Part shown: piece by piece, positions 11,845-59,740 of the stretch
Layout: every line of letters begins with the position of its first letter
Numbering within the stretch: the first letter of the stretch is position 1
Source of the DNA: an uncultured Candidatus Saccharibacteria bacterium
GTDB taxonomy: Bacteria; Patescibacteriota; Minisyncoccia; Phycocordibacterales; UBA9973
Length of the DNA stretch: 64,000 nt
Direction: 5' to 3'
Assembly: GCA_964520225.1 (NCBI GenBank)
Contig: CAZFNV010000004.1
Coordinates: 14,520 to 78,519 of the forward strand
Position numbers and translations under genes: made by a program
Notes under the pieces: model-generated
What the model was told of the DNA's origin: nothing
The model's input: the letters and a program-made list of their open reading frames with translations, nothing else
The model's database searches: none

Positions 11845-11936
11845 GGAGCCGTGTCAGAGTGGTCTAACGTACCTCTTTGCTAAAGAGGTGTACCCTTTAA
11901 AAGGTACCGCTGGTTCGAATCCAGCCGGCTCCGCCA
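11845..11936 (+). tRNA. tRNA-Ser (anticodon GCU), CCA encoded
   Basis: Cloverleaf by eye: acceptor GGAGCCG/CGGCTCC, anticodon loop TTGCTAA, long variable arm, T-loop GGTTCGAATCC. Confidence 0.85.
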
Positions 11937-14962: not shown

Positions 14963-16804
14963 CTAAAAAACGAACGAGAAGAATGACGACAACTGCCGAA
15001 GAAACAAGGCAATATAGTTTATGGTCTGGGAGAAAATATTTTTAGAGCTTGCGGGATAAGTTTCTGAATCTGGGCTATCGAATGTGTTATCTGTGTTCCC
15101 GACATCTATTTTATTTTCTATATTTTGCGAGAAAGCGCCGAGAACTTGTCCGGGGGTATTTGTATTGGTTCGTGTCACCCCCGGACAAGGTTCGCCCGTA
15201 AGCGAGCTAAACAAGTGACCTGGCTGGCAGGGCGCTGATTCCTCCTCGAATGGCGCAGGAGGTTCTTCGGCTTCAGTGGTTTCCGAATTAGCACCACTAA
15301 CTTTGTTATCTGTTTTAGGTTTTGAAACAGATTCCAGAATTTTATCCCAAGGCTTACCTAGGGCAGCAGGTATAGCATAGCTAGTCGCCCAGATACGATT
15401 CTCGAGGGTTTCTCCTGACGACAACATAGCACCATCTTCTGCTTGTAATGTTCCCAAATAGTCGAGCCCACTTTTACCACCTTTAACCCAAGATGTAACT
15501 AAGGCGGCTTCAGCCTGCATAGCCCAACTTGTAGAAGAAACATTACCCCAACCACCATCTACCCCCTGAGAATTCTCTAGATATGAGGCTGCCTTTACGA
15601 GCGCGTCCGACACACCACTCACTCCACTAAAAGGTTTGAGCGCCATCACAGCCGCCGCAGTCACATCAACACTATTTTCCCACGACCCGCCAGAATTTTG
15701 CTTACTCAAAATGAATTCAATGCTTTTTGCAATCATTATATCTTCTGCCTCATAACCCGCATTTTTTAATGGAATAAGGGCAAAAATATCATCGTTCACC
15801 AGATCAGCGTCTCCGAATTGCACACCATCGAATTCTTGAACTATAGCCTCGATGTAATTTGTTCCTTCAAATGAATACGGGTTCTCGTCAAGCGCGAGTA
15901 GGGCCATAGCCCGCCTTTCATTGTCGGTAAGAAGTGAGCTGACAGAATTGTTAGCTTTTAGATATTCTAGAGTAGAATTGACGCTCTCCCCTGAGACATT
16001 TACTGAAGCTAATGCTAAAGCTACCCAGTCAGTATATAAGTCAGCGCCACCAAAAGAACCATCTACATTTTGCACGCTCTTTAAATAAGCAACAGCCAGA
16101 GACACACTAAAGGATGTCGAGGGTGGTGTTGTAGAAGATCCGCCACTGCCACCACCTCCTCCAGTCGTAGATGTTTCTTCGATTTCTTCGGTTTCTTCTG
16201 GTTCTTCTTCTACTGGTTCTGAAACGGGGCTATTGAATGACGGGTCTAGAGACAAGACAGTGAGATCGAGTCTGGAGTTAAGTAGTGTTTCCTCAAACGT
16301 AACCGGATCAAAAGCAGTCAAAACAAGAGATACTACATCCCCTACTTCGAGCACCAAATCAGAGACTCCCACACTAGCACTTACTCCATTCTTTTGCAGT
16401 TGCCAGTATGCGTTCTCCTCTGTAATTTCATTTACACTGTTTACAAAAAGTCCGAATCCAAAATCTGCAAATTCTATACTATCGACGAAACCTTCTTCCA
16501 GAGCTTCAGCTAGCGCACAAATTGCGAGATATTCGGCGAAAGTTGAAATAGGAAAAATGTGAGTACCCCCTGAGGCGTCTTCTAATATACACCCATTCGG
16601 AAGCACAATACTTTCTGTGACGAGGAACAATGGCTCCGCCTCTTCTTCGACAAATTCTTCTTCTACCTCAATCTCCTCTTCCGGAGTAGTCTCTTCAGCA
16701 TTAGGTTCTTCAGGCACTTCGTCTACAGCAAAAGTACGAAGAGGTGCATTGATAAACAATGCAACAACAAAGAAACCGGCTAATAATTTTAGAAAATTTT
16801 TCAT
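14963..16804 (-). CDS. Secreted two-domain protein: DUF4430-like beta-domain plus prenyltransferase/squalene-cyclase-like alpha/alpha-toroid repeats (transcobalamin-like architecture)
   Basis: Signal peptide, then an acidic E-rich linker. A DUF4430-like segment follows (...FGLFVNSVNEITEENAYWQLQKNGVSASVGVSDLVLEVGDVV...), then a G/T/P linker. Four QW-type repeats come last (QNVDGSF, QNSGGSWEN, SQGVDGGWGN, LQAEDGAM). Confidence 0.55.
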   Translation of the reverse strand: MKNFLKLLAGFFVVALFINAPLRTFAVDEVPEEPNAEETTPEEEIEVEEEFVEEEAEPLFLVTESIVLPNGCILEDASGGTHIFPISTFAEYLAICALAEALEEGFVDSIEFADFGFGLFVNSVNEITEENAYWQLQKNGVSASVGVSDLVLEVGDVVSLVLTAFDPVTFEETLLNSRLDLTVLSLDPSFNSPVSEPVEEEPEETEEIEETSTTGGGGGSGGSSTTPPSTSFSVSLAVAYLKSVQNVDGSFGGADLYTDWVALALASVNVSGESVNSTLEYLKANNSVSSLLTDNERRAMALLALDENPYSFEGTNYIEAIVQEFDGVQFGDADLVNDDIFALIPLKNAGYEAEDIMIAKSIEFILSKQNSGGSWENSVDVTAAAVMALKPFSGVSGVSDALVKAASYLENSQGVDGGWGNVSSTSWAMQAEAALVTSWVKGGKSGLDYLGTLQAEDGAMLSSGETLENRIWATSYAIPAALGKPWDKILESVSKPKTDNKVSGANSETTEAEEPPAPFEEESAPCQPGHLFSSLTGEPCPGVTRTNTNTPGQVLGAFSQNIENKIDVGNTDNTFDSPDSETYPASSKNIFSQTINYIALFLRQLSSFFSFVF

Positions 16805-16805
16805 A

Positions 16806-17285
16806 TTAATCTTTGAGTTTCCATTCTATGTGGTCACCCGCTTTTAGCTTGTAATTAGAAATGCCTACGTTCGACTCAGCTCCGTTTATATAAAAAAATA
16901 AAAATTTTCCGTTTCCTTCTTTTATATTCTCAATCTCGGTAACAAAAAATCCCAAAACTGGGAACTCCTTTCCCGTAAAATGAATCGTTCCTTCTAAACG
17001 CATTCTATTCATAGCGCTCTCTAGCGTCTCGCCAGGATTAAAATAAAGTTCCAGATTTTTATCACCGATTTTAAAGGTGGTTCGTTCTTGGTAGATAGTT
17101 TTCTCTTCTGATGCTATCGGCGACTGCGGATTTGAAGCGGTTATATCTTCTATTTTCTCAACAACACCCGTGGAAGCTGATTGATATAGAACATTTTCAG
17201 GCTGAATATCCTCTACTGATGCCAATCGCCATACTAATATGGTCGCAACAAATAAAACTATAAAGATTTTTGTGAATGTTTTCAT
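16806..17285 (-). CDS. DUF4430 (transcobalamin beta-domain-like) secreted/anchored protein
   Basis: N-terminal TM/signal. The C-terminus carries the DUF4430 signature GFFVTEIENIKEGNGKFLFFYINGAESNVGISNYKLKAGDHIEWKL. Confidence 0.6.
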   Translation of the reverse strand: MKTFTKIFIVLFVATILVWRLASVEDIQPENVLYQSASTGVVEKIEDITASNPQSPIASEEKTIYQERTTFKIGDKNLELYFNPGETLESAMNRMRLEGTIHFTGKEFPVLGFFVTEIENIKEGNGKFLFFYINGAESNVGISNYKLKAGDHIEWKLKD

Positions 17286-17289
17286 GGAA

Positions 17290-17470
17290 AATAAAAAAAC
17301 TCCTTCCGAGGAGTCTTGGTGCTTTTAAGCATCTCGAGAGATGCATAAAAACATTTTCCTGCTCGGGATCAAATCGTATTTGGTAGTCGGACTTGTCTCT
17401 CGTGAGACACACCGTAGCGGCACTGTGGAGGATTCACACCTCACTTCCCCAAAAACGATTATTTAATTTT
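17290..17470 (-). promoter_or_regulatory. Cobalamin riboswitch-like leader (short Cbl-II-like aptamer plus terminator expression platform)
   Basis: Minus strand reads AATCGT..GGGGAA..GGTGTGAATCC..ACAGTGCCGCTACGGTG..AAGTCCGACTACC..ACGATT, with a P1 helix AATCGT/ACGATT. These resemble the cobalamin-riboswitch core (GGGAA, GGTG.GAATCC, GC.ACGGT, AAGCCCGA.GACC). A CTCCT/AGGAG hairpin plus U7 follows, 12 nt before the ATG. Confidence 0.55.
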
Positions 17471-17520
17471 ATGGAACACTTATAATCCTATACCAACCCT
17501 TTCCGTAACGCAAATGTCCC

Positions 17521-18162
17521 TCAAGCATACTCCGGCGGACTCTCTTTTAGCCCTGACACGTGATTCACATATCGCGCGAGGGCATAAAAAACACTTGAGA
17601 GACGATTCAAAAACTGAATTTCCGCCTCCCCTGCTCGCGCCTCCTCGCCAGCTTCCCGCATGCGCACCAGCGCTCGCTCAGTCTTCCTCGCGAGAGTACG
17701 CAGTACATCTAAATAGGCCGACAACTCGCTACCGCCAGAAAGTAGGAAGGTTGTGATCGGCGGAAGAACTTCTTCTACTTGCGCTATTATATCTTCTAAG
17801 AAGGTTACATTTTCTGGTTTTATACTTTTATCGCTTCCGGCCACACGCGCCTGTAAAGTAAAAAGCAGATTTTGAATACTGGTGAGAATGTCGGCAATTT
17901 TTTGCTCGTTAGCACCACTCTTTAAAGTCGCCCGCTCCTTTCCGGCAACAACCTTACAAAGCCCTGTCATAGAGTTGAGCTCATCTAGCGCGCCAAGTAC
18001 CTCAAACACGGCATCGCCCTTAGAAATTCTGACACCTTGTGGTGTGTCGAATAATTTCGTTGTACCTTTGTCGCCCTTTTTGGTGTAGAGCATATTTTGA
18101 ATATTACAAACCGCAAATTTAGGCAAGCAATTTTTTATTATCAAATGCAAACACTTGCGCAT
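17521..18162 (-). CDS. ATP:cob(I)alamin adenosyltransferase, PduO type
   Basis: MLYTKKGDKGTT... N-terminal motif of PduO/MMAB-type adenosyltransferases. The likely true start is that Met, at about 18093. Confidence 0.8.
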   Translation of the reverse strand: MRKCLHLIIKNCLPKFAVCNIQNMLYTKKGDKGTTKLFDTPQGVRISKGDAVFEVLGALDELNSMTGLCKVVAGKERATLKSGANEQKIADILTSIQNLLFTLQARVAGSDKSIKPENVTFLEDIIAQVEEVLPPITTFLLSGGSELSAYLDVLRTLARKTERALVRMREAGEEARAGEAEIQFLNRLSSVFYALARYVNHVSGLKESPPEYA

Positions 18163-18664
18163 TTTTGCTTTTGGTAAGCAGGTATCTGTCTATTAGTGGC
18201 GAGAGAAAGAAAGCTAAACCGATGTTGCCGGCCAGATGAAGTAGCGTGAAAGGTATCTGACCATAAAACGCCCCCACAAAAGACTGACCGAAGAATATCG
18301 GACCGATAGTGAGCCCAGTCATAGCGTCAAAAAATAGCGTGCCCAGGACTGCAAAATACACATAGTTACGCCTATTCGCTTCGCGATTCTTGAAAAAAGC
18401 ATAAGCGAAAACACCGAGCAGCCCGTAAACTATTCCAGTAACAAGCGTCCATACGCCAACTCTGGCAGTTATAAAATCAAAAACCGCCAAGCTTAAAAAG
18501 CCAAAGAAGAAAGCTGATGTTCCGCCGAAGTTACGCGCGATTGGCATCTGCGCTGCAAGAATCGGCTCTAAGTTCGGTGCGCGGAATGGAATCAATCGCA
18601 GTAAAAGGCAAAACGCGAAACACCCTGCTAGCTTTAGATAGTTTTGGGATAAATTTTTAGACAT
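18119..18664 (-). CDS. Small polytopic membrane protein, possible ECF-type S-component (cobalamin-specific CbrT-like?)
   Basis: About 180 aa with 5-6 predicted TM helices. It lies between nrdJ and the adenosyltransferase. The functional assignment is by context only. Confidence 0.35.
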   Translation of the reverse strand: MSKNLSQNYLKLAGCFAFCLLLRLIPFRAPNLEPILAAQMPIARNFGGTSAFFFGFLSLAVFDFITARVGVWTLVTGIVYGLLGVFAYAFFKNREANRRNYVYFAVLGTLFFDAMTGLTIGPIFFGQSFVGAFYGQIPFTLLHLAGNIGLAFFLSPLIDRYLLTKSKNAQVFAFDNKKLLA

Positions 18665-21159: not shown

Positions 21160-21233
21160 TCCACCCTCTTGGACTCGAACCAAGGACCCCAGAGGTATAA
21201 GCTCTGTGCTCTAGCCAGCTGAGCTAAGGGTGG
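21160..21233 (-). tRNA. tRNA-Ile with anticodon UAU (reads AUA); CCA not encoded
   Basis: Reverse complement CCACCCTTAGCTCAGCTGGCTAGAGCACAGAGCTTATACCTCTGGGGTCCTTGGTTCGAGTCCAAGAGGGTGGA. Anticodon stem CAGAG/CTCTG, loop CTTATAC, discriminator A. Confidence 0.7.
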
Positions 21234-23224: not shown

Positions 23225-23255
23225 AAGCGCCTTTTGAGCGCTTTTGTATGTCGAG

Positions 23256-23647
23256 TGGAGATGGGGGAAATCGAATCCCCGTGCAGAAGGTTCTTACTAA
23301 AAAGTCTACATGCTTAGCGCGCTTCAAAGTTTAAATTAAAAAATTAAGAAACGAGCCAAATATTTTTTAATCGATCCCAAAGTTTTCGTGAAATACTTGG
23401 GCGAGTATTTCCTTATCCCGATAATATTACACTTCTACTCATATATCGGAAGTCTATGAGAGAAATGCCGGACTTAGGCTTACGCGAAAGCCGGAGCGAA
23501 AGCAAAATCATTCATACCGAAGTATGGGGATTCTGTTTTGCTGTTAGTCAATTTTGCAATTAACGTTTTGAACGAAGTTTAGCGAGTTTACGTCCATGCT
23601 CGACATGCATTTTAGGAAATAGCCGACTGTCTATGCCTGGCATCCCC
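23256..23647 (-). ncRNA. ssrA: tmRNA (ssrA), standard one-piece
   Basis: 5' GGGGATG pairs with 3' CATCTCC to give a G3:U70 Ala identity pair. T-arm is GGGGATTCGATTTCCCC. An internal frame ...GCA AAA ... GAT TTT GCT TTC GCT CCG GCT TTC GCG TAA gives a tag ending -FAFAPAFA. The gene lies immediately downstream of smpB. Confidence 0.7.
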
Positions 23648-59626: not shown

Positions 59627-59740
59627 TCGTGGGAGGCATGAGGGTATCGCGCCCTCTCCAACAGCTCCACAAGCTGATGTGCTACTTCTACACCAATGCC
59701 TCCATGTAGAAACAGTTATACCAGAAAACTCGCCCTTGCG

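Follow-up and report, generated by a model that had tools for sequence, protein, structure and literature searches.

We describe a class II cobalamin (B12, Cbl) riboswitch in a 64,000-nt stretch of contig CAZFNV010000004.1 from an uncultured Candidatus Saccharibacteria bacterium; the whole stretch is called the window below, and all positions refer to it. The element lies on the minus strand, in the 235-bp gap between the gene of a PduO-type adenosyltransferase upstream (17521-18162, with its stop codon at 17521) and a DUF4430 gene downstream (16806-17285), and consists of an aptamer of 89 nt (17460-17372) followed by a predicted intrinsic terminator. We put at roughly 80% the probability that it is a class II (Cbl-IIb-like) switch that turns transcription OFF across a putative operon of two genes for B12 capture, which encode the DUF4430 protein and a transcobalamin-like protein. 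The riboswitch is genuine and, in kind, ordinary: it scores below threshold, but its class is well known and its mechanism of a familiar type.

A class II aptamer just below the curated thresholds

An Rfam scan of the whole window at gathering thresholds returned a transfer-messenger RNA (tmRNA) and three tRNAs only, and no riboswitch. With cmscan on a 401-nt region, the sequence aligned over the full length (model positions 1-149) of RF01482, the adenosylcobalamin (AdoCbl) model, at 48.9 bits (gathering score 50; E = 3.8e-8), and its core matched RF01689 (AdoCbl-II, formerly AdoCbl-variant) at 34.0 bits against 36.5 (E = 5e-7). At these E-values the match goes far beyond chance resemblance. 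A preliminary description of the gap, made from the sequence alone, had proposed a compact Cbl-II-like cobalamin aptamer with a terminator platform and had held that scores below threshold for every cobalamin-class model would refute it. Formally, the scores do fall below, but the shortfall is just 1.1 and 2.5 bits and is outweighed by covariation and orthology; E-values of 1e-7 to 1e-8, covariation, and leaders of orthologous DUF4430 genes that clear the cut-offs (L001, L014 and L006 for RF01482; L098 and L031 for RF01689) together support the proposal. The scores stay under both thresholds because the continuous P1-P3 helix and the P6 hairpin are RF01482-like, the short J6/3 is RF01689-like, and the J1/3 bulge of RF01689 is absent.

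The aptamer elements listed in the preliminary description are all present on the minus strand where it had placed them: GGGGAAG at 17450-17444, GGUGUGAAUCC within 17444-17427, GUGCCGCUACGGUG from 17423 and AAGUCCG at 17394-17388. Its terminal hexamers, AAUCGU (17460-17455) and ACGAUU (17377-17372), are indeed exactly complementary and form the outer part of P1-P3, in which the 5′ strand AAUCGUUUUUGG (17449-17460) pairs with the 3′ strand CCAAAUACGAUU (17372-17383) through 11 standard pairs out of 12 and one U.U mismatch. P1-P3 is one continuous 12-pair helix, with no P2 arm and no P7-P11 extension elsewhere in the fold. It encloses J3/4, the GGAA of the ligand-binding core (17445-17448), which aligns with the GGAA of both RF01482 and RF01689; P4 with a T-loop-like L4 (17427-17444; GUGAGG-UGUGAAU-CCUCC, loop GGUGUGAAUCC); the P5 hairpin AGU-GCC-GCU (17416-17424), whose loop L5, GCC (17421-17419; CCC in the usual consensus), is the predicted kissing-loop partner; P6 with a short hairpin extension (17388-17414, 27 nt; CGG...GUCUC-ACGA-GAGAC...CCG); and J6/3, ACUA (17384-17387), which at 4 nt has the RF01689 length and is 3 nt below the RF01482 consensus. 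The core nucleotides, comprising the J3/4 GGAA, the L4 GGUGnnAAUCC, the B12-box-like GCCGCnACGGUG and AAGUCCG, are all found between 17448 and 17388 and match the consensus.

[quoted passage not shown] Within the class, the AdoCbl-selective Cbl-IIb members have a short mismatched or paired J1/3 and a short P6 hairpin extension (PMC7367189). A J1/3 that is paired apart from one mismatch, together with the P6 hairpin, suggests Cbl-IIb here; the overall architecture agrees, yet the length of J6/3 is RF01689-like. The ligand is predicted to be a cobalamin, probably adenosylcobalamin, which agrees with RF01482 as the best match and with neighbouring genes for proteins that make or use AdoCbl (PduO and an RTPR-type reductase).

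With RF01482, a class II model of Cbl-IIb-like architecture, the element shares a full-length match that includes the P13 hairpin, the continuous P1-P3, the short P6 hairpin, the core nucleotides and the L5-L13 arrangement, whereas its J6/3 is 3 nt shorter, its L5 is GCC instead of CCC with a matching change in L13, and its P13 is much shorter (13 nt compared with a 31-nt inner hairpin in the model). Its likeness to RF01689 (env8HyCbl, Cbl-IIa, PDB 4FRN) lies in the compact core of ~81-90 nt, the equal length of J6/3, a kissing loop with an unpaired L13 purine, and a purine-rich L13 (…GCAGGA…), which doubles as a ribosome-binding site in translational relatives. Unlike RF01689, it has no 7-nt J1/3 bulge, carries a 14-nt hairpin inserted in P6, and uses a terminator as its platform, not sequestration of a ribosome-binding site within L13.

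Related leaders and helix covariation

Exact-sequence look-ups of the 159-aa DUF4430 protein returned no recorded contig, and a word-indexed protein search with it found two proteins only. The one distant homolog among them, P0002 (42% identity), is encoded on a wastewater-metagenome contig, where its gene immediately follows an RF01482 match that scores 57.7 bits (leader L001). The start called for the DUF4430 gene on that contig (331-933, ATG at 331) falls inside the P13 region of the riboswitch; translation probably begins beyond the terminator, at the ATG at 412 (MLKKKIILIL…), and the gene call appears to have been over-extended because the riboswitch went unannotated.

Homologous leaders were collected by a genome-wide DNA pattern search that fixed both L5 and L13. 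At least 119 matches were obtained, ~69 of them real riboswitches, mostly from Candidatus Saccharibacteria and other Patescibacteria, and ~50 of the 119 were discarded as chance matches in high-GC coding sequence. Across the 69 relatives the core nucleotides are invariant or nearly so (nearly invariant for the J3/4 GGAA), an invariance partly imposed by the search pattern. Ten of the closest relatives split between the Rfam models: L014 (58.8 bits) and L006 (54.4) pass the RF01482 gathering score; L098 (44), L031 (43.4), L013 (38.5) and L021 (37) pass RF01689 only; and L032 (48.4), L105 (47), L019 (45.2) and L007 (44.4) resemble the window in lying just under the RF01482 score. L032 and L105 are labelled uncultured Candidatus Saccharibacteria, and their reductases are 81-84% identical to that of the window, which most likely belongs to the same group.

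To the 16 window-like leaders, aligned with MAFFT, a hand-written structure was applied and its pairs were counted: 91.3% of cells are standard pairs, a share that falls to 32-50% if the partners are slid; two-sided changes are seen in 15 of the 31 pairs, including nine of 12 in P1-P3 and all five of the inner stem of P6. Among 102 riboswitches aligned to the model, pairs fill 88.7% of cells, and 26 of the 31 pairs show changes at both positions (12 of 12 in P1-P3), in an alignment that was fitted to the covariance model and hence leans towards the assumed structure. Three of the four P4 pairs covary, with 99.8% of cells paired. P1-P3, P4, P6 and P13 thus covary strongly in the 16 close and the 102 wider relatives, and covariation in homologous leaders, which the preliminary description had suggested as a check, comes out in support of the proposed helices. 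The four-way junction of P3-P6 closed by P1, that of the cobalamin clan (CL00101), is likewise backed by compensatory changes. A covariance model built from the 16-leader alignment, the window sequence being one of the 16, scored the window at 116.8 bits and found a single copy in it. RNAalifold on a MAFFT alignment across subgroups gave P4, P6 and P13 only; P1-P3, which MAFFT alone did not align, was recovered by subgroup alignment together with the covariance model.

P13/L13 and a predicted kissing loop

Three nucleotides after P1 stands a P13/L13 hairpin, UCCCGAGCAGGA (17357-17368), with a UCC/GGA stem and the loop CGAGCA. This element, located between P1 and a spacer hairpin and absent from the preliminary description, aligns with P13/L13 of RF01482, its pairs covary (102 relatives), and CCCGAGCAGGA also occurs in the independently found L001 leader. 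Allowing for one unpaired A, L13 C-G-(A)-G-C-A (17365-17360) is complementary to L5 U-GCC-G (17422-17418); the CCGAG at 17366-17362 has a second complement in the terminator's 5′ arm. A kissing loop between L5 and L13 is found in all cobalamin riboswitch classes, always with unpaired nucleotides, and couples ligand binding to the expression platform (PMC5028336, PMC7367189, PMC10327014), bulged kissing loops being typical of the class (PMC5028336).

Where L5 usually reads UCCCG, the window has UGCCG. L5 reads GCC in all G-type leaders and CCC in 113-114 C-type leaders. For the C-type set, 113 metagenomic leaders were picked for L5 = CCC with L13 left free; their L13 loops are CGAGAG (31), CGAGGA (18), CGUGAG (9), CGCGAG (8) and similar sequences, and CGAGC occurs in one of the 113. 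GAGC is present in all three G-type leaders that were not selected by the pattern, namely the window, L001 and a second copy at L023:2013-2126. The association between L5 GCC and L13 GAGC has a Fisher p of ~1.6e-5 by our own arithmetic, which ignores relatedness, and the L5-L13 pattern is consistent with a compensatory exchange of C:G for G:C in the kissing loop. A search of the viral collection for further leaders with G in L5 and a free L13 gave five chance matches in coding sequence only.

A nine-codon frame (AUG UUU UUA UGC AUC UCU CGA GAU GCU UAA; 17327-17353, minus strand) starts 2 nt after the AGGA of P13, and an AUG stands 1-3 nt after AGGA in L007, L031, L056 and L013 as well. The frame was considered and rejected: the spacing is too short for a ribosome-binding site and the frame is not conserved, so that it is probably a chance occurrence in AU-rich sequence.

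A predicted terminator and a proposed competing antiterminator

Folding places a spacer hairpin of 14 pairs at 17320-17353 (UGUUUUUA.GCAUCU-CUCG-AGAUGC.UAAAAGCA), which would bring the terminator's 5′ arm close to L13; in close relatives this position is taken by a hairpin of other sequence. The GC hairpin of the preliminary description does exist, but is merely the tip of this longer one. It is followed by the intrinsic terminator (17286-17317), with the stem AAGACUCCU/AGGAGUUUU, the loop CGGA and a U-rich tail that ends directly before the AUG; CUCCU-CGGA-AGGAG and the run of seven U occupy 17313-17293 (U7 at 17299-17293). A consensus scan flagged the same terminator-like site independently, with nine pairs, three of them G-C, a 4-nt loop and a T-run; folding gives the hairpin an energy of -9.1 kcal/mol, and ~50 of the 69 related leaders have a comparable hairpin and U-run within ~50 nt of L13, which upholds the intrinsic terminator as a prediction. 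Its distance to the start codon, given earlier as 12 nt, was approximate only: the AUG stands 10 nt from the end of the stem (17296), 7 nt from the last U (17293) and 14 nt from the AGGAG.

The 5′ arm and loop of the terminator contain a predicted antiterminator target (17306-17313), in which CU (17313-17312) would pair with AG (17360-17359) and CUCGG (17310-17306) with CCGAG (17366-17362). The same complementarity recurs in the family: in many related leaders the 5′ arm, CCUGCUC(G), is the exact complement of L13 GAGCAGG, whose sequence appears again in the 3′ arm. The duplex that L13 would form with the 5′ arm has a mean predicted energy of -10.5 kcal/mol in 54 leaders, as compared with -5.75 for shuffled arms and -5.7 for 3′ arms (Wilcoxon p ~1e-8); the window is at the weaker end of this distribution (-8.9 versus -5.0). 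When the nascent transcript is folded up to the terminator loop, the minimum-energy structure is the antiterminator, at -23.4 kcal/mol versus -15.4 with L13 blocked. For the complete platform, the terminator fold (-24.8 kcal/mol) and the antiterminator fold (-23.4 kcal/mol) are nearly equal in computed energy, as a kinetically controlled switch would require.

Proposed mechanism and its precedents

Transcription would start from a conserved promoter just downstream of pduO, to which polymerase reading through from the nrdJ-ECF-S-pduO genes (ECF-S, the S component of an energy-coupling factor transporter) may add. The aptamer, with P1-P3, P4, P5 and P6 arranged around the four-way junction, would bind cobalamin, probably adenosylcobalamin, and the bound ligand would stabilise the kissing loop between L5 (GCC) and L13 (G-A-GC) of P13. 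With L13 held in this way, AAGACUCCU-CGGA-AGGAGUUUU and the U-run could form, and transcription would stop just before the start codon. When B12 is lacking, the free L13 CCGAG (with AG) would instead pair with CUCGG (with CU) of the terminator across the 14-pair spacer hairpin, and the resulting antiterminator would let the polymerase read into the capture genes. Control of this kind would be kinetic, that is, exerted co-transcriptionally, and repressing in direction.

The closest precedent is the corrinoid riboswitch of Priestia megaterium metE (Kennedy et al. [quoted passage not shown] The metE riboswitch differs from that of the window in its UCCCG L5 consensus and its five-pair contiguous kissing loop, and in drawing the antiterminator from the 3′ side of P13, where the window would use the L13 loop and the 5′ side of P13 (CCGAG); the window also has the 14-pair spacer hairpin between the antiterminator partners. 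The metE aptamer is, we assume, of the large class I type. The btuB riboswitch of Escherichia coli (Cbl-I, RF00174) has the same four-way-junction core and L5-L13 kissing loop and also represses a B12 acquisition gene, but it possesses a P2 arm and a large P6 (P7-P11) extension and acts mainly on translation.

Alternative readings

Several properties of the window weigh against the switch as proposed. Its sequence misses the curated gathering scores set for the two class II Rfam models, P13 has only three certain pairs, the antiterminator is short (5 + 2 pairs and a C.C mismatch), the stem of the terminator, at -9.1 kcal/mol, is rich in AU and has three G-C pairs, and the covariation test of the kissing loop is weak, given that the search pattern fixed L5 and L13 and that the three independent G-type leaders are mutually related. 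In one alternative reading, the resemblance could be due to chance or to a decayed relic, with an inert aptamer and a hairpin and U-run that merely terminate the nrdJ-pduO operon. The low Rfam scores would suit such a relic, as would the lack of a separate terminator between the pduO stop (17521) and the riboswitch. However, E-values of 1e-7 to 1e-8 and the high score on the relatives' own model (built with the window included) speak against it, all helices are intact and show compensatory changes relative to orthologs, and many genomes of Saccharibacteria and Paceibacteria, with proteins that share just 35-60% identity, keep the aptamer, L13, terminator and promoter in the same place. We consider this explanation extremely improbable and, judging from covariation and synteny, effectively refuted.

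In a second alternative, the same aptamer could act mainly on translation, with the final hairpin sequestering the AGGAG of the DUF4430 gene, or on both levels. The AGGAG, which the preliminary description had described as occluded, is indeed in the 3′ arm of the hairpin (17304-17300) and is the sole Shine-Dalgarno-like motif upstream of the AUG. Some relatives have a favourable spacing (7 nt in L021), and elsewhere in the family the AUG follows 6-9 nt after L13 itself (CCGAGCAGGAG), so that this aptamer type also occurs with translational platforms. Against this, the spacing in the window is 14 nt, and control through the ribosome-binding site is not conserved: among the 16 close relatives, the distance between the AUG and the last GGAG-like motif varies from 7 to 34 nt (107 nt in one case), or the motif is missing. 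The hairpin is moreover always followed by a run of 5-8 U, needless for sequestration alone, and the GGAG of the 3′ arm is accounted for by the complementarity of the 5′ arm to L13. Mainly translational control therefore appears improbable, and occlusion of the ribosome-binding site would be at most a secondary, non-conserved effect. More weight attaches to the identity of the ligand, as a class II switch might sense a cobalamin with a small upper ligand (methylcobalamin or hydroxocobalamin, Cbl-IIa-like) or corrinoids broadly, in place of AdoCbl. The core also matches RF01689, the env8HyCbl-type model (E = 5e-7), J6/3 has 4 nt as in that model, several close relatives pass RF01689 only, and selectivity is known to shift with small peripheral changes (PMC7367189). 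The deleted 7-nt J1/3 bulge and the hairpin extension of P6 are, on the other hand, Cbl-IIb features (PMC7367189), RF01482 is the best-scoring model, and the PduO and RTPR neighbours make and use AdoCbl. We regard this alternative as unlikely, if the most serious of the three; the RF01689-like J6/3 and the split of the relatives between both models weigh in its favour. A transcriptional, terminator-based OFF switch responding to cobalamin, probably AdoCbl, remains our preferred reading.

As an observation on the family, L037, L052, L059, L071, L078, L084 and L121 have no terminator and an AUG 6-9 nt after CCGAGCAGGAG, so that L13 doubles as the ribosome-binding site; one aptamer/L13 type is used with translational and transcriptional platforms alike.

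Promoter and gene order

The generic sigma-70 scan flagged no promoter in the gap. Conservation nevertheless singles out a -35-like hexamer, TTGCGT (17508-17513, minus strand), which starts 7 nt past the PduO stop, and a -10-like hexamer, TAGGAT (17485-17490, minus strand), which aligns with TAGAAT, TATAAT or TAAGAT in L007, L031, L006, L108 and L019. The combination TTGCnn-N17-(GTG)TAnnAT occurs in ~14 of the 16 window-like leaders at a constant position ~25 nt upstream of P1. Transcription is predicted to start near 17479, ~19 nt before P1, and conservation suggests that the riboswitch has a promoter of its own. Neither sequence reading nor the consensus scan revealed a separate terminator between the pduO stop and the riboswitch, so that read-through from the upstream genes would meet the same switch. 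With plentiful B12, the upstream nrdJ-ECF-S-pduO transcript may likewise stop at the riboswitch terminator.

Across Saccharibacteria and Paceibacteria the locus has the same order: a gene resembling an ECF S component, an RTPR-type AdoCbl-dependent reductase, usually PduO, the riboswitch, DUF4430 and a large protein. The reductase, PduO, DUF4430 and the transcobalamin-like protein keep their synteny across Patescibacteria. The riboswitch is predicted to gate only the last two genes of the cluster. Upstream in the window, a membrane protein of 181 aa (18119-18664, minus strand) overlaps the PduO gene by 44 nt. It matches ECF riboflavin S-component models at sub-cut-off level only (Pfam 25.0 against 26.7; NCBIfam E = 1.2e-3) and, in view of its synteny with the B12-dependent reductase throughout Patescibacteria, is a candidate for a B12-specific ECF S component.

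The genes downstream of the riboswitch

The first gene after the riboswitch (16806-17285, minus strand, ATG at 17285) encodes the 159-aa protein with an N-terminal signal or membrane segment and a DUF4430 domain (Pfam PF14478, 1.3e-13). This riboswitch subtype is followed first by a DUF4430 homolog in ~25 loci. Transcobalamins carry DUF4430 as their C-terminal domain (PMC4350170). Searching the PDB by sequence with the protein returned nothing meaningful, and NCBIfam has no model for it.

The second gene (14963-16804, minus strand) encodes a 613-aa protein that Pfam, AlphaFold2, Foldseek and synteny describe as a membrane-anchored, transcobalamin-like combination of a DUF4430 beta domain and an alpha/alpha toroid. 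Its AlphaFold2 model (mean predicted local distance difference test score, pLDDT, 80.7, from a 50-sequence alignment) has an N-terminal helix, a beta domain (61-187), an alpha/alpha toroid (234-489) and a C-terminal helix; pLDDT averaged per block of ten residues is mostly >90 in the beta domain and the toroid, and the terminal helices could anchor the protein in the membrane. The best Foldseek matches in the PDB are terpene cyclases (2e-8), haptocorrin (5e-6), transcobalamin (1.8e-5) and intrinsic factor (1e-3), the toroid matching the terpene cyclases about as well as the three B12 carriers. The protein has the same two domain types as eukaryotic transcobalamin and intrinsic factor, in the opposite order. 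It has >500 homologs, mostly in Patescibacteria and annotated only as 'terpene cyclase/mutase' or 'DUF4430'; one of them carries PF01122, which we take to be the eukaryotic cobalamin-binding family. A role in B12 capture is plausible and would fit the riboswitch.

The same riboswitch subtype (L5 GCC/L13 GAGC) also precedes a 22-member family of Saccharibacteria proteins of 380-609 aa (L030, L035, L102, L112, L090, L043, L066 and 15 further loci), with a Cys-rich, zinc-ribbon-like C-terminus; two more members are cut off by contig ends. A separate four-member family follows the riboswitch in Gottesmanbacteria (L008, L011, L037 and L050). None of the six proteins scanned, four from the former family and two from the latter, matched Pfam. 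Both families read as putative B12-repressed genes, and the window has no homolog.

A broader interpretation, to which we give somewhat less than even odds, is that the small DUF4430 protein and the membrane-anchored transcobalamin-like protein form an undescribed B12-capture module widespread in Patescibacteria and switched on only when B12 is scarce, and that the Saccharibacteria proteins without known domains behind the same subtype have unrecognised B12-related functions, for example as B12-independent substitutes.

Significance for B12 regulation in Patescibacteria

The class, the logic of the kissing loop and the terminator/antiterminator platform were already known and nothing conceptual changes; the interest of this riboswitch lies mainly in its gene context. 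Through their predicted control by it, the poorly characterised DUF4430 and transcobalamin-like genes become good candidates for the B12 scavenging machinery of the candidate phyla radiation. Among the papers available to our literature search, none on cobalamin riboswitches in Saccharibacteria or Patescibacteria was found. The Saccharibacteria/Patescibacteria subgroup sits between the two curated class II Rfam models, with members often below both thresholds, so that B12 regulation in these episymbionts, which are reduced and auxotrophic for B12, goes under-reported when annotation relies on thresholds. Complementarity of L13 to the terminator 5′ arm, seen family-wide, extends a mechanism proven in one Bacillota riboswitch to many uncultured lineages.

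The other structured RNAs of the window are the tmRNA (113 bits; 23253-23647, minus strand) and the tRNAs at 21160-21233 (minus), 59632-59702 (minus) and 11845-11933 (plus), one of which lies directly upstream of the reductase gene.

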